From: an uncultured archaeon
GTDB taxonomy: Archaea > Nanobdellota > Nanobdellia > Pacearchaeales > GW2011-AR1
Direction: 5' to 3'
Assembly: GCA_903831045.1 (NCBI GenBank)
Contig: CAIKWG010000038.1
Location: 1 to 42,006 of the forward strand
Length of the DNA stretch: 42,006 nt
Shown here: positions 1-26,711 of the stretch, piece by piece
How the letters are laid out: each line of letters starts with the position of its first letter
Numbering within the stretch: the first letter of the stretch is position 1
Program-made: the position numbers and the translations under genes
Notes under the pieces: generated by a model
Told to the model about the DNA's origin: nothing
Databases searched by the model: none
What the model saw: the letters and a program-made list of their open reading frames with translations, nothing else

Positions 1-2142
1 GAAAAAGAAGAGATAGAAGAGCAGATTCAAAAGAGAAACAAAGAAATAGAAAAAATACAGAAAACAATTCTAACACAAAAGACAACAATTGAAAATTTAG
101 AAGAAAAAATTAAACAAATAAATTCAACTATTCAGCAGTCCACAGGTTTGGAACAAGAGAAGCTGAACAACGAAATTGCAAATCTAAGAGCAGATTTAGC
201 CGGATTAAAGGTTCGTCAGGATAACTATGAAAGAAAAATTAGTTCCATTCAAAAGCAAAAAGTAGATATGCAGAATTCAATAAGAGATACGGAGCTTTCA
301 GTAAAAGAATTGCAGAAAGATTCTCCAACAATCGAAAAGAATCAAAAACAATTGATAAGCAAAAAACAAGAATTAGAAAAATTAGAAGAGAAAAGAAAAA
401 AGTATTATACTACTAAATCTGAATTTAGAGCAATTAAGGACAGAATAAGTGATAAACAAACTATTCTCCAAAGCTATGTTAATGAATCAGAATTTTTAAT
501 AAAACAAATTCAATCTTTGGGTGCAGAACTCTTTGACAAAAAAACCGATGAAAAAAAAGTAGAAGAATTAAAACATTCACTTGCGGATAAAAGACAATTT
601 TTAGAGAATACTAACAAAAGAGAAATTGATTTAGAAAAATTAACCAATAGAAATGAGTTTGAAATCTCAGAACAAAATAAGCTAATAGAGAAAATATCCA
701 AAATGGATGTTTGCCCTGTATGTAAAAGTCATATTACTGATGATCATATTCATCACATTAGAGATGAGGTAATGCCCAAGATACAAGCCTTAAAATTGCA
801 AATTGAAAACTCGGATAAAGAATTAAATGATATTTATTCTAAAAAAAGTTTTCTGAAACAAACTATAGATTCCACAACAGAAGAAATTCAAAAGAGACAA
901 TCAGACCTTTCTAAGCTTTCAGCAATTGAAGATAAAAAAAATCAAATAAAAACTTTACAAGAAAAGATTCAAATTTCCAAGAGTGAGTTAGTGGAATTAG
1001 AAAAGATAAGAGCAGGGTTAGAATCAACCTTTGAAGAAAATTCAAACATTGAAGAAAAGTACGAATCTGCAAGAATAGAAGTTCAGGATATCTCTCTAAG
1101 AAGCAAGGAAAATTTAACTTCTGAAATATCCTTCAAACAAAGAGAATTAGAAAGAATAGAAGCTACAATAAAGCAATTAAATCAAGAGCAGAAAGATGCA
1201 GAAGAAGAATTAGTCTCAATCAAGAAGACTGTTGCTCAAAAAGAAACAATCCTGGATAAGAAAAGAAAAGATGAAGAAAAATTAGCAGAAAGATTTAAGG
1301 TATTAATTTCTGAAAGAGATAATACTCAATTAAAGATAAGAGAAACTGAAGGTCAATCTTCTAGAGACAAAAATGTAGTTTATAACATCGAACAAGGAAT
1401 AAATAATTTTAAGATTGATATTGCTAAGACAAATGCAGAAATAGAAAATTTAGAAACAGAAATACTAGAGTTTTCTAATGTGGAAATAATAAGAACTGCA
1501 AACAAACAAGGATTAACAGAGAGATTAACTAAAACCCAGGAATCTCTAATGAGACTTGGTTCAGTAAACATGAGGGCTCTTGAAACCTACGAATCTATTA
1601 AAGAAGAATATGATCGAGTAAGTGAGAAAGTCGAAATAATTTCAAAAGAAAAAGAAGGGATTATGAAGATTGTCCATGAAATTGATATAAAGAAAAGAAA
1701 AGCATTCCTCTCAACTCTTGAAGCATTGAATCTAATCTTTGGAAGAAACTTTATGCAAATTTCAACAAAGGGGGAAGTTTATCTAGACCTAGAAAATAAA
1801 AAGGATCCTTTTGAAGGAGGAGTTAATATAATTGTTAAGACTGGTCACGGAAAATATTTTGATGTTAAATCTCTTTCTGGAGGAGAGCAAACAATGGTAG
1901 CTCTCTCATTGATATTTGCAATTCAGGAGTTAAAACCCTACTGCTTCTATATACTAGATGAAATTGATGCAGCTCTAGATAAAAGAAATTCTGAGCGTTT
2001 GGCAGGTCTTCTAAAGAAGTATATGCAGAAAGGTCAATATTTGGTAATAACCCATAATGATGAGATTATAACCAATGCAACTAATCTGTTTGGAGTTTCA
2101 ATGCACGAAGGAATAAGTAAGATTGTTAGTCTGAAGGTTTAA
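1..2142 (+). CDS. smc: SMC-family chromosome ATPase (5'-partial) with a central CxxC zinc-hook-like motif
   Basis: Frame is open from base 1, so the TTG at 148 is not the true start. Long coiled coil; C-terminal head with LGSVNMRA, LSGGE signature and Walker B/D-loop FYILDEIDAALD typical of Smc; CPVC at 712-723. Confidence 0.9.
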   Translation, partial: EKEEIEEQIQKRNKEIEKIQKTILTQKTTIENLEEKIKQINSTIQQSTGLEQEKLNNEIANLRADLAGLKVRQDNYERKISSIQKQKVDMQNSIRDTELSVKELQKDSPTIEKNQKQLISKKQELEKLEEKRKKYYTTKSEFRAIKDRISDKQTILQSYVNESEFLIKQIQSLGAELFDKKTDEKKVEELKHSLADKRQFLENTNKREIDLEKLTNRNEFEISEQNKLIEKISKMDVCPVCKSHITDDHIHHIRDEVMPKIQALKLQIENSDKELNDIYSKKSFLKQTIDSTTEEIQKRQSDLSKLSAIEDKKNQIKTLQEKIQISKSELVELEKIRAGLESTFEENSNIEEKYESARIEVQDISLRSKENLTSEISFKQRELERIEATIKQLNQEQKDAEEELVSIKKTVAQKETILDKKRKDEEKLAERFKVLISERDNTQLKIRETEGQSSRDKNVVYNIEQGINNFKIDIAKTNAEIENLETEILEFSNVEIIRTANKQGLTERLTKTQESLMRLGSVNMRALETYESIKEEYDRVSEKVEIISKEKEGIMKIVHEIDIKKRKAFLSTLEALNLIFGRNFMQISTKGEVYLDLENKKDPFEGGVNIIVKTGHGKYFDVKSLSGGEQTMVALSLIFAIQELKPYCFYILDEIDAALDKRNSERLAGLLKKYMQKGQYLVITHNDEIITNATNLFGVSMHEGISKIVSLKV

Positions 2143-2492
2143 ATTTTTTTAGCAAGAGTTTTTCCTCTTTCTGTTTCATCAACAAATTCTGAGATATAAA
2201 ATTGTGGAAGAGTAGAACGTACAATTTCAGTTAATCTTTTTTTTGTATATTCATAGGCTTTTCTTTCTGCTTCTTCCGAAGAAAGAGCTATTGCTACTGG
2301 ATTAAACTGTCTATTAAAGTATGCATTAACACTTGGAGGACTTAAGATAACATATCCTCCATCAACTTTTTTTATTTCAGCAGATATAAAACATCCAGTC
2401 ATTCCCACACCTGCAGTATATCTAACTAGTCCTTCTAATTCCTCTTCCTCATAGGGCATTTGAGAAATATATCCTCTAACTTTGTTATCCAT
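2139..2492 (-). CDS. hypothetical protein (ORFan, probable paralog of the next gene)
   Basis: 117 aa ORF; TATA-like TTATAAATA about 22 nt upstream of ATG. Confidence 0.75.
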   Translation of the reverse strand: MDNKVRGYISQMPYEEEELEGLVRYTAGVGMTGCFISAEIKKVDGGYVILSPPSVNAYFNRQFNPVAIALSSEEAERKAYEYTKKRLTEIVRSTLPQFYISEFVDETERGKTLAKKI

Positions 2493-2539
2493 TATATTCT
2501 AATTAAAATATTATTTATAAGCATTATTGCTTTGTATCC

Positions 2540-2890
2540 CTAATTTTCCCAGGTTCTTTCACCTTCAATGACCTTGGGATGGCCTTCAAGTTGAGTTTCA
2601 TCAATAATGTTCCCAACTCTCATTGCATTTTCTTCTAGAAACTGCTGTACGAGCTTTAATAGATGATTCTTGGCATCTTCATAGAGAGCCTTCTCTGTTT
2701 CTTCTAAATCTTTCTCTACTCTAAACGGCCTTTTTATTCTTGAATAAACATCCGTATGATGTGTTAGAACATATACTCCATTCACATAGTCATATTCGTT
2801 TACAACTGCTCCTGCAACACAATCAGGAATTACAACATATCCTCTCTTAGTTTTGCCAAAGCTAAACTTTTTTATGTGTATGTTCTGCAT
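2540..2890 (-). CDS. hypothetical protein (ORFan)
   Basis: Start moved to ATG at 2890 (MQNIH), which lies about 22 nt from a TATA box; shares G-Y-V...EE-E--YE--K--L...DET pattern with 2139..2492. Confidence 0.7.
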   Translation of the reverse strand: MQNIHIKKFSFGKTKRGYVVIPDCVAGAVVNEYDYVNGVYVLTHHTDVYSRIKRPFRVEKDLEETEKALYEDAKNHLLKLVQQFLEENAMRVGNIIDETQLEGHPKVIEGERTWEN

Positions 2891-2940
2891 ATAGAACAAT
2901 CTACAGCGAGTCTATTTATAAAAATAATTGTCCTATAGAA

Positions 2941-19755: not shown

Positions 19756-22700
19756 CTACTTATTAACCTCTTCTACTATTTGAGAACTTGCAGTTTTCTT
19801 TTCGCTTTCTTTCTTTGTTAATGGTCCAATAACATTTACAAGTAAGCCCGGAAGACCAGTACCCACAGGAACAGGTTGGTTTAAGATTATGTTCTCAATA
19901 ACACTTGAAAGCTTATCGTGTTTGCCCTTTACAATCGCATTTACGAATTGTTTGATTGGAGTTTCGAATGTTGCTCTTGCTAAAATAGAAGCTTTCTGTG
20001 CAATGATTCCCATTCTTGTTACACCCTTAATTTCTCCAGTATTAGTCATAGCGTCGGCAGCAAGTCTTAAATGTCTTTCATTAATATCAAGACCTTGAGA
20101 ATTAATAACTTCTTTAATTTCATTAATAATTAACTGTCTTGCAACTTCAATTCCGTAGGTAGCACAAACTTCGTGTAAATCGTTTGAAATTGTTTTTTCA
20201 GGATCAACTTCTTTCATCTTTGTGATTTCTTTTAAGTTTGTTCCAAGAGTTATAACAACAAAGTCTTTTCCTCTTTTTACAATTAAAATTTGTTCAACAC
20301 CCTTAATACCAGATATAATTGTTGTCTTTAATTTTTCCTTTAATTTGTAAATCTCCTTGAAATTATAAGCATTAGCATCAAGAACAATCAAACCACTTTG
20401 TTCTTTAACTTCGAATCCAAGTTCATTTAATCTACCAACAACTGTTGGAACTGTTGTATGTGTTCTTCTTAATCCTTCTCTATCTATTTTTATTTCAATC
20501 TTTTTTGAACCAAAATCTAAATTAATTTCTGAAGAAATTTCTTTTAATGTAACTTCTTTAATCTTTTCAGCAAATACTTTTGCGTGGTCTTCATCATTGT
20601 AATCTTTATTCAGATAAATTTCCATCTTCGGAGTTGAAGGTTTCTTTCTAGCATCGAAGATTTCAATAATTCTTGGTAAACCAGTAGTTACCTGCATTTC
20701 TTCTACACCTGCCATATGGAAAGTATTCAAAACCATCTGTGTTGAAGCTTCACCAAAAGATTGTGCGGCCACAAGTCCAATGGCTTCACCGGGGCAAATC
20801 TTTCCTCCAATGTGCATGTTTGTAACTTCAATTCCGTCTCCACCATAAATGAATTGGATAATATTATTTCCACTATCTCTAACTGTTCCATCATATTCCA
20901 CTCTAATATCTTGGAATGCATTTGCTAATCTTCTATACAAGTATCCTGATTTTGGAGTTCTCAAAGCAGTATCCATCATTGAATCTCTTCCTGTTATAGA
21001 CTGGAAGAAAAATTCTTCTGGTTTCAACCCTTTAATAAACGCACTTCTAATAAATCCTCTTGCTGCTGGAGATAAATCTCCTTTTTTGAAAAATGATAAT
21101 GTTCTATCTGTGTATCCAAAGTCAATTCTTCCTCCTGCGAAAGCCTGTTGACCAATACAAGAAGCCATCTGAGCAATATTAACAATATTACCTTTACTTC
21201 CGGAATTCATTAATGCACTAGCCTGATTTGATTCTGGGAAATTTTTCTTAATCTTCTGACCAATCAATGTTCTTGCTTCATTCAAAGCTTTCAAGATATA
21301 AGTTTCTCTTGATCTTTCAGCTGTTTTACCTGGAATTAATTCTAATGTGTCTTCTGCTTCTTTCTTTAATATTTCTTCTACTTTGTGATATGAATCTTTA
21401 ACAATCTTATCACATTCTTTAAGTAATTCTTCATCCAAATCAAAATCTTCAATTGATAAAGATAATCCGTAATCTGTTAAGAAGAATCTTCCTAAATCTG
21501 AAACTTTCTTAATTATTTCAAATGCTTCAGTTCTTCCGAATTTTTTATCAATTAATTTGATAACTTCTCCATCTTCACCACCGAATACGTTCTTATCAAT
21601 AATTCCACTCTTAATCACACCATTATCAATATCTATTGTTTCAGTTTTATAATCAATCTTAGGCAGGAATGTTGAAAATATTTCTAATCCTGTAACATTT
21701 TTCTTAACTTCAGCATCAATTCCAGATCTATATAATAATTGGTTTGCTTCTTCTTTTGTGAATTTCTTTAATCCTAATAAATAATTTCCTGTAACTGCAT
21801 CAATTGCACATCCAATAAGGTTTGTATTATTCTTTGGAGACATTAAATTTTCTTTAACATCTAAAAGTATTTTTGCTTCAGCTCTTGCTTCTTCAGTTTG
21901 AGGAGAGTGAATATTCATTTCATCACCATCAAAATCCGCATTATACGGATTACATGCAGATGGATGCATTCGGAAAGTTCTTCCTGGAAGTACCTTAACG
22001 AAATGTGCCATCAAACTTCCTCTATGAAGTGATGGGTGTCTGTTGAATAAAACAATATCTCCGTTTTGTAAATGTCTTTCTACTTGATAACCTACTTTTA
22101 ATTCTGCAATAATTTCTTCTTTTAATTCGTTTGAAATCTTTTTCTTTCTTCCATCTGGTCTGATAACATAATTTGCTCCAGGATATTCTGCTCCCATCTG
22201 GATTAATTTCTTTAATTTATTCATATTGATGTCGTTTACCATTTCAGCAACAGTTACTACTCTTGCAATTTCAAATGGAATTCCAACTTCGTTAATTTTT
22301 AAACTTGGATCTGGACTAATAACAGTTCTACCGGAATAATTAACTCTTTTACCTGCAATATTCTTTCTAATTCTTCCTTCTTTACCCTTAATTCTTTCAG
22401 TAATTGTTTTCAAAGGTTGACCACTTCTATGTCTTGCTGGAGGAACTCTAGCAACTGCATTATCAAAGAAAGTTGTAACATGATATTGTAATAAATCCCA
22501 AAGATCTTCAATAATAACTTCTGGAGCACCAGCGTTTAAGTTTTCCCAAAGTCTTTGATTCGCTCTAATAATATCAGAAAGTTTATGTGTTAAATCATCT
22601 TCTGATCTTTCACCTGTTTCTAAAATAATAGAAGGTCTTACTGTAACTGGAGGCACAAGTAATGAAGTTAAAATTGCCCATTCTGGTCTTGAAGTTCTAG

Positions 22701-23244
22701 CATTAACTCCAATCTTTTTTAATTCTTCATCAGGAATTCTAACCAGATGTTCTCTAATTTCTGTTGGGAAAATTCTTGTTTTACCCTTATAGAAACTTGT
22801 TGGTTTATCCAATTTCATTCTTTCTTGAGGTTCATGACAATGAGGACATTTTTTTGCATCTTTTGCTCTTTTAGCTCTTTCACTAGGAGTATATTTTTCT
22901 AATTCTTTTTCAGTAATCATTAATTTTCCACAATGTTGACAGAAACATCTTAATCCCATTTCAATCAAAGGAACAAACTTCAGATGAATTACTGACTTAG
23001 CCAGGTCAATGCTACCAGGGTGTCCTAGACATTCTTTTACTCTTCCACCACAAGTTCTACATCTAACACCCGGATCAACAGCTCCGAGTCTTAAATCCAT
23101 TAATCCACCATCTACTGGATAACCATCAATATCATAAAGTTCTGGAGTTACAACTTTTGCAACTGAAATTCTTTTGATTTGGTCTGGACTAAGTAAACTG
23201 AATCTAAGTTCTCCGATTTTTTTTCTTATTGGTTTTTTTGCCAT
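19756..23244 (-). CDS. rpoA: RNA polymerase subunit A, fused A'+A'' (Rpo1)
   Basis: NADFDGDEMN catalytic motif; Zn motifs; A''-type PGEAIGLVAAQSFGE and ARATFET...GTG in one ORF. Confidence 0.97.
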   Translation of the reverse strand: MAKKPIRKKIGELRFSLLSPDQIKRISVAKVVTPELYDIDGYPVDGGLMDLRLGAVDPGVRCRTCGGRVKECLGHPGSIDLAKSVIHLKFVPLIEMGLRCFCQHCGKLMITEKELEKYTPSERAKRAKDAKKCPHCHEPQERMKLDKPTSFYKGKTRIFPTEIREHLVRIPDEELKKIGVNARTSRPEWAILTSLLVPPVTVRPSIILETGERSEDDLTHKLSDIIRANQRLWENLNAGAPEVIIEDLWDLLQYHVTTFFDNAVARVPPARHRSGQPLKTITERIKGKEGRIRKNIAGKRVNYSGRTVISPDPSLKINEVGIPFEIARVVTVAEMVNDINMNKLKKLIQMGAEYPGANYVIRPDGRKKKISNELKEEIIAELKVGYQVERHLQNGDIVLFNRHPSLHRGSLMAHFVKVLPGRTFRMHPSACNPYNADFDGDEMNIHSPQTEEARAEAKILLDVKENLMSPKNNTNLIGCAIDAVTGNYLLGLKKFTKEEANQLLYRSGIDAEVKKNVTGLEIFSTFLPKIDYKTETIDIDNGVIKSGIIDKNVFGGEDGEVIKLIDKKFGRTEAFEIIKKVSDLGRFFLTDYGLSLSIEDFDLDEELLKECDKIVKDSYHKVEEILKKEAEDTLELIPGKTAERSRETYILKALNEARTLIGQKIKKNFPESNQASALMNSGSKGNIVNIAQMASCIGQQAFAGGRIDFGYTDRTLSFFKKGDLSPAARGFIRSAFIKGLKPEEFFFQSITGRDSMMDTALRTPKSGYLYRRLANAFQDIRVEYDGTVRDSGNNIIQFIYGGDGIEVTNMHIGGKICPGEAIGLVAAQSFGEASTQMVLNTFHMAGVEEMQVTTGLPRIIEIFDARKKPSTPKMEIYLNKDYNDEDHAKVFAEKIKEVTLKEISSEINLDFGSKKIEIKIDREGLRRTHTTVPTVVGRLNELGFEVKEQSGLIVLDANAYNFKEIYKLKEKLKTTIISGIKGVEQILIVKRGKDFVVITLGTNLKEITKMKEVDPEKTISNDLHEVCATYGIEVARQLIINEIKEVINSQGLDINERHLRLAADAMTNTGEIKGVTRMGIIAQKASILARATFETPIKQFVNAIVKGKHDKLSSVIENIILNQPVPVGTGLPGLLVNVIGPLTKKESEKKTASSQIVEEVNK

Positions 23245-23245
23245 T

Positions 23246-26200
23246 TTATTCGTATTTATTCTTTAAAGTAAATTGAGTATTCATATGTAAGCCTTGCAAT
23301 TCCTCAATTAATAATTTAAATGCATATGAAACTTCAACAGGTTCTGTTTCTTCTGAATTACACATTGGACAGATAATCTTATTTCTAATTGTATCTTCAA
23401 GTGCGATTGTTCCACATTTTGAACAAATGTATAATGTTACTTTATCTGAATCATATCTTTCTTTTAATAATAATGAAGCTCCGTGAGCAACAAGTGCTTG
23501 CTGTTCCATTTCTCCAAGTCTTAATGCTCCTCCTCTTGCTCTTCCTTCGATTGGTTGTCTTGTTAATAATGCAACTTTACCTGAAGCTCTTCCGTGCATT
23601 CTATTTCCTACCATATATTTCAACTTTAGATAATATAAACTTCCAACGAAAATCTTTGCAGGAATCTTTTTACCAGTGATTGCGTTGTACATTGTTTCTT
23701 TTCCATCAAATCTAAATCCATATTCTTCTAATTGATCTTCAAGACTATCTTTACTTTCATTATTGAATGGAGTTCCATCAACAACGCTTCCTCTAATTGC
23801 GGCAGCTTTTCCACCAATCAATTCTAATAAATATCCTACAGTCATACGACTAAGTAACCCGTGTGGATTGAAAATTACATCTGGTTTCATACCAGAAATA
23901 GAAAATGGAACATCCTGTTCTGGAATAATTGCTCCAACAACTCCTTTCTGTCCGTGTGGATTTGCATATTTATCCCCTAGTTCTGGGATTCTTTGATCTC
24001 TTGTTTTAACCTGAACAATTTTATTTCCTTCATCATCAATTGTAACAAAAACAGCCTCGGCAATTCCCTTTTCTTCTTGTCTCAGTGTAACACTTGATTC
24101 TTTCTTTGTTCTAACTGAAATTTCTCTTGCTTCGGATAAGAATTTAGGTGGAGAAAGTTTACCAATTACAACATCTCCTTCATTAATATCAGCTTCTGGA
24201 TAAATAATTCCATCATCTTCTAATAGTCTATAGGCTTCTTCTGTTCTATATCCTGAAGTATCTTTTTCTGGAACAACAATTTCATCTTTTAATCCCCCAG
24301 CATAGTTCATTTCAACTGCAGAATATGGTCTGAAATAGAAACTTCTTCCAACACCTCTATCTAAACTTCCTTTATTCAATACAATAGCATCTTCCATATT
24401 ATAACCTTCATAGGTCATAATTGCAACAGTCAGATTTTGACCAGCAGGATAGGTATTAAGAGTATCATAAACAAAACTTCTTACTAATGGTTTTTGAGGA
24501 TATTGTAAAATAGAAACATCTGTATCTAATCTACATAAATAATCTGCAGCATAAAGTCCCAATGACTGTTTCTGTGTTTTTCCTCCCTTAAGAAGTCTTG
24601 AACTTGGATCGTGATTTGCGTATGAAACAATTGCAATTGAAAGTCCTAGAGAACCAATTGGGTCAATTTCTAAATGAGTATGTTCAGCATCTATTTCTTC
24701 TTCTTTTAGTGCAATATAAGCTTCTTCTTCTTCCGCAGCGTCTAAATATTCAACAATTCCTTTGTTTACAAGGTCAATCCACTTTAAACTTCCTTGTTCT
24801 AATTGTACCATGTGTTCATTTTTTAACTTTGAAGAACCATTGTCTACAACAATAAGAGGTCTTAGTGTTCTACCGGGTTCAGTATAAATAGAAACTGTAC
24901 TTAATCCATCATCTTTTCTTACGTTCATTTGAACTGGGAATTGTCCAGCTCTTCTTTTTTCTCTTATATTTTTTACAAATTTACTAGCATCCTTAACATT
25001 TCCAACATATCCTCCGTTGAAGAAAACTTCCATTCCTTCTGTTCCTTCCTTTTCCAGTCCAATTGATTCTAATTCTTTAATGAATTTATCCAAATCTAAT
25101 TCAACTCTTGTAGAAACTTTAGCTAATACAGCAAGGTTTTTTCTCAGACCAATTTCAGTTCCTTCTGGAGTTTCAATAGGACAGAATCTTCCATAATGAG
25201 TTGGATGTAATGTTCTTGCAGCAAAATTTTCTTGTTCACTTTCAAGCATACTAGAAACTCTTTGTAATTGAGAAATCATTGCTAGATAGTTTGTCTTATC
25301 CATATTCTGAGTAACTCCGCTTCTTTCTCCGGTCCAAGAACCAGTAGCAATAGCAGATTCAACTCTGTGTGAGAATAATGTTGATTTAGCTAAAATTTTG
25401 ATAGATAAATATTTTTTTCTCTTTGAAGATTTTTGTAATGAATATTGAATATCTCTAATTAAAATTCCTAGGTTTACTCTGAATAGAGTAGCAAGCAAAT
25501 CTCCAGAAAGTCTAACTCTCTTATTTGCATAATGATCTTTATCTGTTCTTAAATCTGGATTTTCTTTTGCAGTTAAATACTGCTTAATTAGTTTGCATAA
25601 TGTTATTGCTTTTTTTGTTCTATCTTCTTTAGCTTGACCAATGTGAGGAAATAAATATGAATCAATTCTTTGTTTTACTCTATCCATAATTTCTTTTTTT
25701 GTTCCTTGAAGATTTGTTTTTTCAGCAATATACATCATTGCATCTTCTTTTGTTGCTAAATCTACAAATTCATATAGGTTTACAATAACACTGTCTGTTT
25801 CTTTACCAATATATTTAGCAATATCCGATTCTTTAACAAGACCAAGTGCTTTTAGTATTACCACAGCTGGAACATCTTTGAATCTACTAAATGAAACATT
25901 GAAAATTCCTTCTTTGCTTTCACTGATAGTCATTGGAATTCTATAGGTTCCCTTAAGTGAGAATAATTTTAAAGTCAATTCTTTCTTTTTATTTTCTTCA
26001 ATGAATGGTTGGTTTTCTGCAAGGTCTTCAGCCATTACCATAACTCTTTCATTTCCTTTAACAATGAAGTATCCACCTGTATCCAATGGATCATTATATC
26101 TTTGAACAAGTTGTTCTTTTGTTAATCCAGCAGTGTTACAAGCTTTACTCTTAACCATAACTGGAATTCTTCCAATTTCAACAACTTCAGAATCTACATT

Positions 26201-26503
26201 TCCATCTTTCTTAATTGTTAATTCTAATTTAACTGGAGCTGAATAGGTTAAATTTCTTAATCTAGCTTCATATGGTGTAATTAATGCAGAACTTCCATCT
26301 GCTTCAGTAATGTCTGGTCTACCAACTTCAATTTTTCCTAATTTTATTTCAAATTCCTCATTTTCAATTGTTCCGTTGATTTCATCAACAATTTCTTGCA
26401 TTCTATGCTCGATAAACTCATTAAAAGAAATAATATTTGATTCAACAATAGAATGATCTTCTAGATATCTTTTTACAATAAGGTGTTTGTTTGATTGAAT
26501 CAT
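23246..26503 (-). CDS. rpoB: RNA polymerase subunit B, unsplit (Rpo2)
   Basis: GGYFIVKG, CPIETPEG, GYNMEDA, HGQKG, LRLGEME, C-terminal Zn finger; start moved to ATG 26503. Confidence 0.97.
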   Translation of the reverse strand: MIQSNKHLIVKRYLEDHSIVESNIISFNEFIEHRMQEIVDEINGTIENEEFEIKLGKIEVGRPDITEADGSSALITPYEARLRNLTYSAPVKLELTIKKDGNVDSEVVEIGRIPVMVKSKACNTAGLTKEQLVQRYNDPLDTGGYFIVKGNERVMVMAEDLAENQPFIEENKKKELTLKLFSLKGTYRIPMTISESKEGIFNVSFSRFKDVPAVVILKALGLVKESDIAKYIGKETDSVIVNLYEFVDLATKEDAMMYIAEKTNLQGTKKEIMDRVKQRIDSYLFPHIGQAKEDRTKKAITLCKLIKQYLTAKENPDLRTDKDHYANKRVRLSGDLLATLFRVNLGILIRDIQYSLQKSSKRKKYLSIKILAKSTLFSHRVESAIATGSWTGERSGVTQNMDKTNYLAMISQLQRVSSMLESEQENFAARTLHPTHYGRFCPIETPEGTEIGLRKNLAVLAKVSTRVELDLDKFIKELESIGLEKEGTEGMEVFFNGGYVGNVKDASKFVKNIREKRRAGQFPVQMNVRKDDGLSTVSIYTEPGRTLRPLIVVDNGSSKLKNEHMVQLEQGSLKWIDLVNKGIVEYLDAAEEEEAYIALKEEEIDAEHTHLEIDPIGSLGLSIAIVSYANHDPSSRLLKGGKTQKQSLGLYAADYLCRLDTDVSILQYPQKPLVRSFVYDTLNTYPAGQNLTVAIMTYEGYNMEDAIVLNKGSLDRGVGRSFYFRPYSAVEMNYAGGLKDEIVVPEKDTSGYRTEEAYRLLEDDGIIYPEADINEGDVVIGKLSPPKFLSEAREISVRTKKESSVTLRQEEKGIAEAVFVTIDDEGNKIVQVKTRDQRIPELGDKYANPHGQKGVVGAIIPEQDVPFSISGMKPDVIFNPHGLLSRMTVGYLLELIGGKAAAIRGSVVDGTPFNNESKDSLEDQLEEYGFRFDGKETMYNAITGKKIPAKIFVGSLYYLKLKYMVGNRMHGRASGKVALLTRQPIEGRARGGALRLGEMEQQALVAHGASLLLKERYDSDKVTLYICSKCGTIALEDTIRNKIICPMCNSEETEPVEVSYAFKLLIEELQGLHMNTQFTLKNKYE

Positions 26504-26504
26504 T

Positions 26505-26711
26505 TTAGACAACAACCCTGTAATATAAATTTATTTTTTCATCTTCTTTTCTTTCGATTTTTATAACTTCACCAATGTTTGCACCTTCAGGAATTGCAAG
26601 ATCAGTTAAAAGCATCTTCGGTAATTGTGATTTAGATAGGTTTAAAGAATTAAGAATTTTTTTTGTTTCTTCTTCACTTAACTTTGTTTGTTTTGGTTGT
26701 AGAACGTGCAT
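26505..26711 (-). CDS. rpoH: RNA polymerase subunit H (Rpo5)
   Basis: HVLQPK, QLPKM, GEVIKIER, YYRVV. Confidence 0.93.
   Translation of the reverse strand: MHVLQPKQTKLSEEETKKILNSLNLSKSQLPKMLLTDLAIPEGANIGEVIKIERKEDEKINLYYRVVV

Follow-up and report, generated by a model that had tools for sequence, protein, structure and literature searches.

A Rad50-like zinc-hook module in place of the hinge of Smc in an order of Nanobdellota archaea

We analysed a 42,006-nucleotide stretch of DNA (hereafter the window) from an uncultured archaeon (GTDB Nanobdellota; Nanobdellia; Pacearchaeales; GW2011-AR1; assembly GCA_903831045.1, contig CAIKWG010000038.1), which opens with the larger part of an smc gene whose product has a CPxC motif at its centre and no hinge domain. 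Very probably, this is the single smc gene of a Smc-ScpAB system in which a Rad50-derived CPxC...H module took the place of the hinge and of the adjoining arm in a single event, in the ancestor of the order. Here we describe the architecture, conservation, double SMC and Rad50 ancestry, spread and partner genes of this hook Smc. A preliminary description, made from the letters of the window, had proposed a hinge-to-hook swap in a true Smc, and this proposal is supported by the head scores, the trees, the missing hinge positions and the Rad50-like centre. In what follows, own order, family and phylum are those of the source genome of the window, an 821-kb assembly of 56 contigs that is 83% complete.

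The window holds the gene as a 713-codon open reading frame (ORF) with an open 5' end. Because the window starts at base 1 of its contig (C38), this truncation is an assembly artefact, and the full gene could be recovered by joining the C38 fragment to an N-terminal head half found on contig C34. The whole protein comes to about 953 aa, and its CPxC, at about residue 478, lies in the exact middle. In P0001, a full-length homologue of 945 aa with 91% identity, just three residues, KKK, separate the two pieces, so that the missing N-terminal part has no room for a hinge; the C34 piece itself aligns to positions 1-234 of the SMC model TIGR02169. The break between the contigs falls inside an A-rich lysine-coding run (C34 ends in ...CAAAAA and C38 starts with GAAAAAG...), and about 9 nt (about 3 codons) were lost in the gap, judged from P0001.

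The hinge is likewise absent from the remainder of the protein, as had been claimed for the part between the window start and the head. TIGR02169 aligns at positions 239-469 on nt 1-699 and at positions 701-1164 on nt 748-2136, leaving about 230 hinge-holding positions (470-700) replaced by about 16 residues, and PF06470 (SMC_hinge) gave zero matches in the protein or in the window genome at its 83% completeness. An AlphaFold2 (AF2) model of full-length P0003, an 87% identical homologue, contains two long helices (168-474 and 487-827) joined by a 12-residue apex and no globular middle domain (mean pLDDT, the predicted local distance difference test, 79.2). Throughout, hinge calls rest on Pfam and alignment; a regular expression for the hinge G-motif was dropped, because it labelled some hinge SMCs 'other' and had one chance match in a hook protein (L087).

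The heads of the protein belong with Smc and not with Rad50, in keeping with the preliminary description. The C-terminal head that it called canonical is present in the 713-aa ORF with RLGSVNMRALETYE, LSGGE and QELKPYCFYILDEIDAALD as quoted, and the two ABC ATPase head halves carry Walker A, Q-loop, signature, Walker B, D-loop and H-loop. Head residues invariant in 47 sequences are G32..K38 S39, Q144, S866 G867 G868 E869, D893 E894, D896 and H925 in full-length numbering, the C-terminal ones being S626 G627 G628 E629, D653 E654, D656 and H685 of the window fragment. The fragment matches Pfam SMC_N at 4.1e-22 and, among NCBIfam hidden Markov models (HMMs), scores 251.8 bits with SMC_prok_A, 91.7 with the model for archaeal SMC-related proteins (ASRPs) and 78.5 or less with the Rad50 models. 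Full-length P0003 reaches 533.6 bits with TIGR02169 and 513.3 with TIGR02168. Its heads are not of Rad50/SbcC type, the best Rad50 model scoring 103.9 bits where the cut-offs of these models are 700-1087. Nor does the protein belong to the ASRPs (ClsN/Sph), with 117.5 bits against a cut-off of 300 (NF045487) and a length of 953 aa versus about 600 aa; this separation rests on HMM scores, the trees having been built without ASRP, ClsN and Sph sequences. In a PDB search, Pyrococcus Smc heads came top (1e-42 to 1e-33), followed by eukaryotic SMC1-4, with Rad50 heads at 3e-6 or weaker, and the trees place the protein inside the SMC radiation. Its homologues, assigned to Pacearchaeota or Nanoarchaeota, carry the database names 'chromosome segregation protein SMC' or 'SMC family protein'. 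To judge from its heads, the head-proximal two thirds of its arm strands and its genomic position, the window gene is an Smc orthologue by descent.

At the tip of the arms, the hook motif CPVCKSHITDDH stands exactly where it had been reported, as fragment residues 238-249 (nt 712-747). A word-indexed homologue search returned 1286 matches at E<=1e-10 among 8000 scored candidates, and 113 of the best 120 homologues are 944-953 aa long. Exactly one central CP[LVIM]C occurs in 120/120 of these close homologues (CPLC in 90, CPVC in 19, CPIC in 7 and CPMC in 4), so the CxxC is not a chance occurrence. In a 48-sequence alignment reaching down to 29% identity, no coiled-coil residues other than C238, P239 and C241 are invariant, and at least 90% of the sequences retain H249 (fragment numbering). 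Each of the 46 hook-type rows used for the trees has the CPxC as well, and a CPxC SMC of 952-988 aa occurs in 27/27 genomes of the own family, one of the genes being split across two contigs. An exhaustive search of 50%-identity representatives found about 25 full-length hook-type clusters aligning end to end; next came hinge SMCs of 1100-1200 aa, which align in two pieces around the centre. The CPVC, whose conservation in orthologues the preliminary description had made a condition, is matched by a CPxC in all orthologues inspected, and the hook module is under strong purifying selection.

The likeness of this centre to Rad50 extends well beyond the motif. We compared the region from -45 to +49 around CPxC between 27 hook SMCs and 8 same-phylum Rad50 proteins using hhalign. 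The whole region matched at E 4.9e-23 over 92 columns, the 22-residue hook core at 5.8e-17, and the motif-free flanks (about 45 aa each) at 7.5e-9 on the N side and 7.3e-8 on the C side, against 6e-4 to 0.075 for nine mismatched coiled-coil controls. Beyond this region, register-matched pairs scored 1.5e-3 on the upstream side and 1.7e-5 on the downstream side (+50 to +144). Both families have the flank pattern ...iskLD(I/V)CPxCK(S/Q)x(I/V)T..EH in common. Additionally, a 60-aa window slid along P0003 and scored against a hinge-SMC profile and a Rad50 profile resolved three collinear blocks: residues 151-360 are SMC-like (1e-23 to 3e-6), residues 421-600 are Rad50-like (8e-9, 2.4e-16, 6e-11, 2.5e-5 and 1.7e-5) and correspond to Rad50 aa 307-474, and residues 631-953 are SMC-like again (9e-9 to 6e-26); in the stretches between the blocks neither profile scores. 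The N-strand arm encoded in the window scored 3e-8 to 3e-6 with the hinge-SMC profile and 4e-3 or weaker with Rad50, its boundaries being good to about 30 aa. The C-strand arm scored 9e-9 to 6e-21 with the hinge-SMC profile, is collinear with aa 817-996 of P0148 and is helical to aa 827. In the AF2 model of P0003, low-confidence breaks at 346-354 and 606-612, about 128 residues to each side of the hook, sit at the edges of the non-SMC middle, and a 94-aa hook piece modelled on its own forms a helical hairpin (pLDDT 93.5). A profile of the SMC hooks searched against the PDB placed Pyrococcus furiosus Rad50 hooks on top (1l8d at 1.1e-5, 6zff at 4.3e-5); a single-sequence search with the hook region reached 1l8d only at E 0.16, after two spurious interferon matches. 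These comparisons support a centre that is not a mere CxxC but spans some 180 or more Rad50-like residues, hook and coiled coil together, and the most economical reading is that recombination placed a Rad50 hook and the coiled coil belonging to it on the arms of an Smc.

Hinge-less Smc proteins are found throughout the own order. PF06470 is present in 359 of the 400 genomes of a phylum sample (each at least 90% complete; the tally includes six unpublished genomes), and in none of those from the own order (0/27 in the own family and 0/1 in each of two other families); it was also missing throughout a second, independent sample from the order (0/61). In this latter sample an SMC homologue was found in 61/61 genomes, as a single homologue in 60. 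The CPxC hook was read in 34, another 11 match the hook-type query end to end (their hooks were not inspected), 13 have a short hook-less form and 3 are fragmentary. One genome, G413, holds an extra SMC-like ORF of about 1000 aa (G413:C20:636-3542), 28-42% identical to P0003 in two pieces, which may be a paralogue or a contaminant; its smc itself is fragmentary.

Phylogenetic analysis points to one event. In an IQ-TREE tree (quick search, LG+C20+F+G4 PMSF, 64 rows, 681 columns, central columns removed), all hinge-less rows form one clade (SH-aLRT 99), which is nested within further hinge SMCs and sister (88) to the hinge SMCs of the same class (96). A FastTree tree of 139 rows agrees (hinge-less clade 100). 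The trees exclude rows above 1300 aa (intein-bearing) and most fragments below 900 aa. A clade-wide hinge-to-hook swap of single origin, in the ancestor of the order, is therefore the history that these results support. In addition, rnhB lies directly upstream of smc in the window genome, in the 9 hook loci with flanks available and in 3/8 hinge-SMC genomes of other families.

We also observed an insertion of about 530 aa just after Walker A in many SMC genes of the phylum, of both hook and hinge types. Carriers include P0122 and P0130 (1479-1483 aa), ORFs of 1490-1514 aa in G424, G426, G438 and G439, and L035 and other hinge SMCs of about 1700 aa. The match restarts at query residue 38, and the L035 junction looks intein-like on inspection of the sequence.

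The short form of the order is 781-809 aa long, with one member of 898 aa (L110-L122; proteins P0141, P0142, P0144 and P0149; genomes G437, G404, G433, G429, G418, G427, G431, G436, G414, G409, G402, G423 and G403). It lacks a hinge, a CxxC and any conserved apex motif, and its alignment to the hook form is confined to aa 1-350 and the part beyond about 580. In its centre, some 100 residues resemble neither Rad50 nor the arms of SMC, and no Rad50 remnants were found in the short forms. Within the hinge-less clade they branch at four points, one of which is basal, and they come from several independent assemblies. One possible interpretation, which we hold only tentatively, is that the outer third of the Smc arm, beyond the paired symmetric coiled-coil breaks, is an exchangeable cassette. 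It would have been filled in three ways: by the ancestral hinge and arms in the sister lineages, by the Rad50 hook module in most of the order, and by a plain hairpin of about 100 aa in at least 13 of the 61 genomes.

Genes for the partners of Smc are present. Matches to both ScpA (45.8 bits, cut-off 24.6) and ScpB (134.5 bits, cut-off 27.4) occur in the window genome, and ScpA was found in 58/61 genomes of the order. The preliminary description had set scpA/scpB against mre11 as possible upstream neighbours: scpA and scpB are in the genome and mre11 does not adjoin smc, and the upstream gene itself is neither, being rnhB. The hook smc forms no operon with mre11; mre11 (388 aa) is coupled to a separate rad50 (682 aa, best matches Rad50) on contig C3, where the two are translationally abutting (G000:C3:43256-46471). 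Rad50 was found in 59/61 genomes of the order, with CxxC in 30/30 loci read. Among the Rad50 loci compared (L125-L154 and the C3 locus), those of the own family show a drifted hook, CPTC(L/F)Q, in which Y often replaces the downstream H. CPxCK(Q/S)..(T)..H is retained both in Rad50 from other families and in the hook of Smc, the Smc version reading CP(L/V)CK(S/T). This drift could reflect insulation between two hook proteins, or neutral drift.

In Rad50 hooks, four cysteines from two chains surround one Zn2+ (PDB 1L8D). By analogy, one Zn2+ held by four cysteines, two per chain, would join two Smc chains at their arm tips, while the heads would engage on ATP and be bridged by the kleisin ScpA together with ScpB. 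The product would be the usual tripartite ring or rod, loading on and moving along DNA, but built without a hinge domain. We infer the zinc-joined dimer from the Rad50 hook and from the growth-supporting engineered protein Smc(Zh), described below. When two copies of fragment aa 178-300 were folded with Zn, the score was 0.17 against a mark of 0.42, which is evidence neither way.

Several observations weigh against this account. Zn binding, homodimerisation and condensin function are attributed to the hook Smc by analogy, and relatives of about 800 aa with no hook imply that an apex dimeriser may not be required and weaken the case for function from conservation alone. In the window genome smc is split over two contigs, and the join is deduced from the 91%-identical homologue. 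Both Smc models stay under their curated equivalog cut-offs (533.6 versus 729.4 bits for TIGR02169 and 513.3 versus 567.35 for TIGR02168), which we attribute to the missing hinge. As for the domain models singled out earlier, SMC_hinge was absent as anticipated, and Rad50_zn_hook (PF04423) remained sub-threshold on fragment residues 221-261 (17.2 bits, cut-off 24.3). A Foldseek search with the 94-aa hook model ranked 1l8d first and second, at weak E-values (0.027 and 0.05). Moreover, composition can inflate the E-values that hhalign gives for coiled coils; the controls, though few, argue otherwise. All Rad50 groups tried as donor match (own family 9.5e-16, rest of the order 6.5e-21, other orders 4.9e-23), and the donor lineage cannot be named from these matches. 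Finally, the IQ-TREE tree is a quick search with only 88 on the sister branch, and its root depends on distant SMC cluster representatives whose taxonomy is unknown.

The alternatives must be judged against the same data. The hook might have arisen by convergence: once the hinge was lost, a CxxC would have emerged de novo where the arm ends, and its resemblance to Rad50 would reflect no more than the constraints on zinc hooks in coiled coils. The core motif is short, Pfam and Foldseek respond weakly, and hook-less short forms in the same clade, one of them basal, would allow a bare hairpin to precede the hook. However, the motif-free flanks match on both sides and, weakly, out to +144, the likeness is collinear where mismatched coiled coils reach 6e-4 or weaker, and specific flank residues are common to both families, so we give convergence a slim chance. 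An artefact, such as a chimeric contig or a gene call fusing smc and rad50, might be suggested by the splitting of the gene at a contig end; we find it scarcely credible, given more than 1000 homologues from independent sources with lengths held tightly at 944-953 aa, the same layout on long and single-contig genomes, in-frame junctions and a module conserved to about 30% identity.

Two further alternatives concern function. Instead of being the condensin of the cell, the hook protein might be an SMC-like paralogue with a specialised role, either ASRP/ClsN-like or in repair, the true Smc having been missed in incomplete genomes. The window genome is only 83% complete, and the ASRPs, according to the account in PMC9389158, are archaeal SMC-related proteins with zinc hooks. 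Nevertheless, this appears extremely unlikely in view of the ASRP and Smc scores given above, of a hinge found in 0/28 genomes of the order that are at least 90% complete, single-contig ones included, of one SMC homologue in 60/61 genomes (the weak ORF of G413 aside), of the rnhB-smc synteny common with hinge SMCs, of the place inside the SMC tree and of the retention of ScpA. Alternatively, the hook may serve not a stable homodimer but bridges between different Smc complexes, or cross-hooking with the Rad50 of the cell. The two kinds of hook do coexist, and the divergence between Rad50 CPTC(L/F)Q and Smc CP(L/V)CK(S/T) may be insulation or nothing; motif drift is a weak signal, and the engineered Smc(Zh) works as a plain dimeriser, which makes such a role very unlikely in our view. 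Replacement of the hinge by a Rad50-derived module in the Smc of Smc-ScpAB is the reading we retain, and the features on which it rests are collected in the table.

Table. Parts and features of the hook smc gene; coordinates refer to the window unless a contig is named.
Feature	Location (nt)	Strand	Details
smc, 3' part (about three quarters of the gene)	1..2142	+	residues ~241-953 of ~953 aa, plus stop codon
smc, 5' part (N-terminal head half, 237 aa)	G000:C34:16874-17584		last ORF of C34, 3'-open; SMC_N and TIGR02169
N-strand coiled-coil arm, SMC descent	1..360	+	full-length aa ~241-360; collinear with hinge-type SMC arms
Rad50-like zinc-hook module	541..1080	+	full-length aa ~421-600; collinear with same-phylum Rad50 aa 307-474
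Hook apex CPVCKSHITDDH	712..747	+	fragment aa 238-249; AF2 hairpin; presumed Zn site, two Cys per chain to one Zn2+ between two chains
C-strand coiled-coil arm, SMC descent	1171..1761	+	full-length aa ~631-827
C-terminal half of ABC ATPase head	1762..2139	+	motif positions, invariance, PDB matches
Signature LSGGE	1873-1887	+	C-terminal head half
Walker B/D-loop FYILDEIDAALD	1945-1980	+	C-terminal head half
H-loop His	2053-2055	+	C-terminal head half

The rest of the window is core chromosome, with genes for RNA polymerase, EF-1alpha, EF-2, ribonucleotide reductase and a Toprim protein. Two small ORFs of 117 and 119 aa (window 2139-2899, minus strand) follow immediately after smc in the opposite orientation, and the smc loci of relatives have no counterpart to them. 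In archaea, RpoA usually comes as two pieces, A' and A''. Here a single ORF of 1162 aa (window 19756-23244, minus strand), which comes after an RpoB-like ORF at 23246-26515, has Rpb1 domains 1-5 and looks fused.

Whether the hinge does more than hold the arms together, for instance as a DNA entry gate or in DNA binding, is a long-running question; so far as the accounts in PMC5344682 and PMC6969161 go, engineered chimeras have been the only means of approaching it. In nature, an entire order of archaea seems to have carried out the hinge-replacement experiment, keeping the hook, ScpA and a tight length. If hinge, hook and plain hairpin all work with ScpAB, neither the hinge nor an apex dimeriser would be essential for a cellular Smc complex, and if the cassette interpretation is true, the hook Smc must coexist with, or be insulated from, the Rad50 hook of the cell. 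These proteins offer natural sequences for studying dispensable hinge functions, the limits of arm length and register at the graft, and the coexistence of two hooks. There is also a consequence for annotation: SMC surveys based on the hinge, as in the method outlined in PMC5344682, would miss the hook Smc, which also scores below the cut-offs of the NCBI equivalog models.

Reviews, as represented by the outline in PMC10586767, draw a dichotomy between SMC proteins with hinge and kleisin and Rad50 with hook and Mre11. Like the Smc of Smc-ScpAB in, for example, Pyrococcus furiosus and Bacillus subtilis, the protein described here has heads with all motifs, antiparallel arms of about 300 aa, the rnhB-smc position, encoded ScpA and ScpB and a place inside the SMC tree; it differs from hinge Smc in lacking the hinge, in being about 190-220 aa shorter and in falling below the curated cut-offs of both HMMs. 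With the Rad50 hook (1L8D, 6ZFF) it shares a CPxC...H apex between antiparallel helices that is collinear with same-phylum Rad50, whereas its heads are not of Rad50 type (104 bits or less), no mre11 is adjacent and the Mre11-Rad50 operon is separate.

Other hook-bearing or hinge-less relatives stand further away. The ASRPs (ClsN/coalescin, Sph1/2), presented in PMC9389158 as a separate family of hook-bearing archaeal SMC relatives, are also archaeal coiled-coil ABC ATPases with a zinc-hook motif, but they are about 590 aa long, and the hook Smc scores far below their HMM cut-off, is nested in Smc and has ScpAB. The 'hinge-less' SMC variants of marine Actinobacteria, characterised in the relevant part of a 2025 report as being without CXXC (PMC12153180), likewise belong to the SMC clade and have no hinge; by that description they are bacterial and nearer to the hook-less forms of about 800 aa than to the hook form. 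No natural Smc bearing a zinc hook turned up in our full-text literature search, whose coverage left out most subscription journals; such proteins could be present, uncommented, among the supplementary sequences of PMC5344682, PMC8665677 and PMC9389158.

The closest parallels are laboratory constructs. In the engineered B. subtilis Smc(Zh), the hinge was swapped for the P. furiosus Rad50 hook, and the protein is reported to support growth when the arm length is right (Buermann et al. 2017, PMC5344682). The reverse chimera, Schizosaccharomyces pombe Rad50 with a MukB hinge, has also been made (Tatebe et al. 2020, PMC6969161), and, as these two reports present it, hinge and hook are interchangeable in engineered proteins. 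Our results support the existence of a natural, clade-wide Smc-Rad50 chimera, comparable swaps being known so far only from such laboratory chimeras. Smc(Zh) and the archaeal protein follow the same design, an Smc with a Rad50 hook. In contrast to Smc(Zh), the archaeal hook Smc is natural, ancient and fixed in an order, and its graft probably brought about 180 or more aa of Rad50-like coiled coil, starting near the breaks at 346-354 and 606-612.

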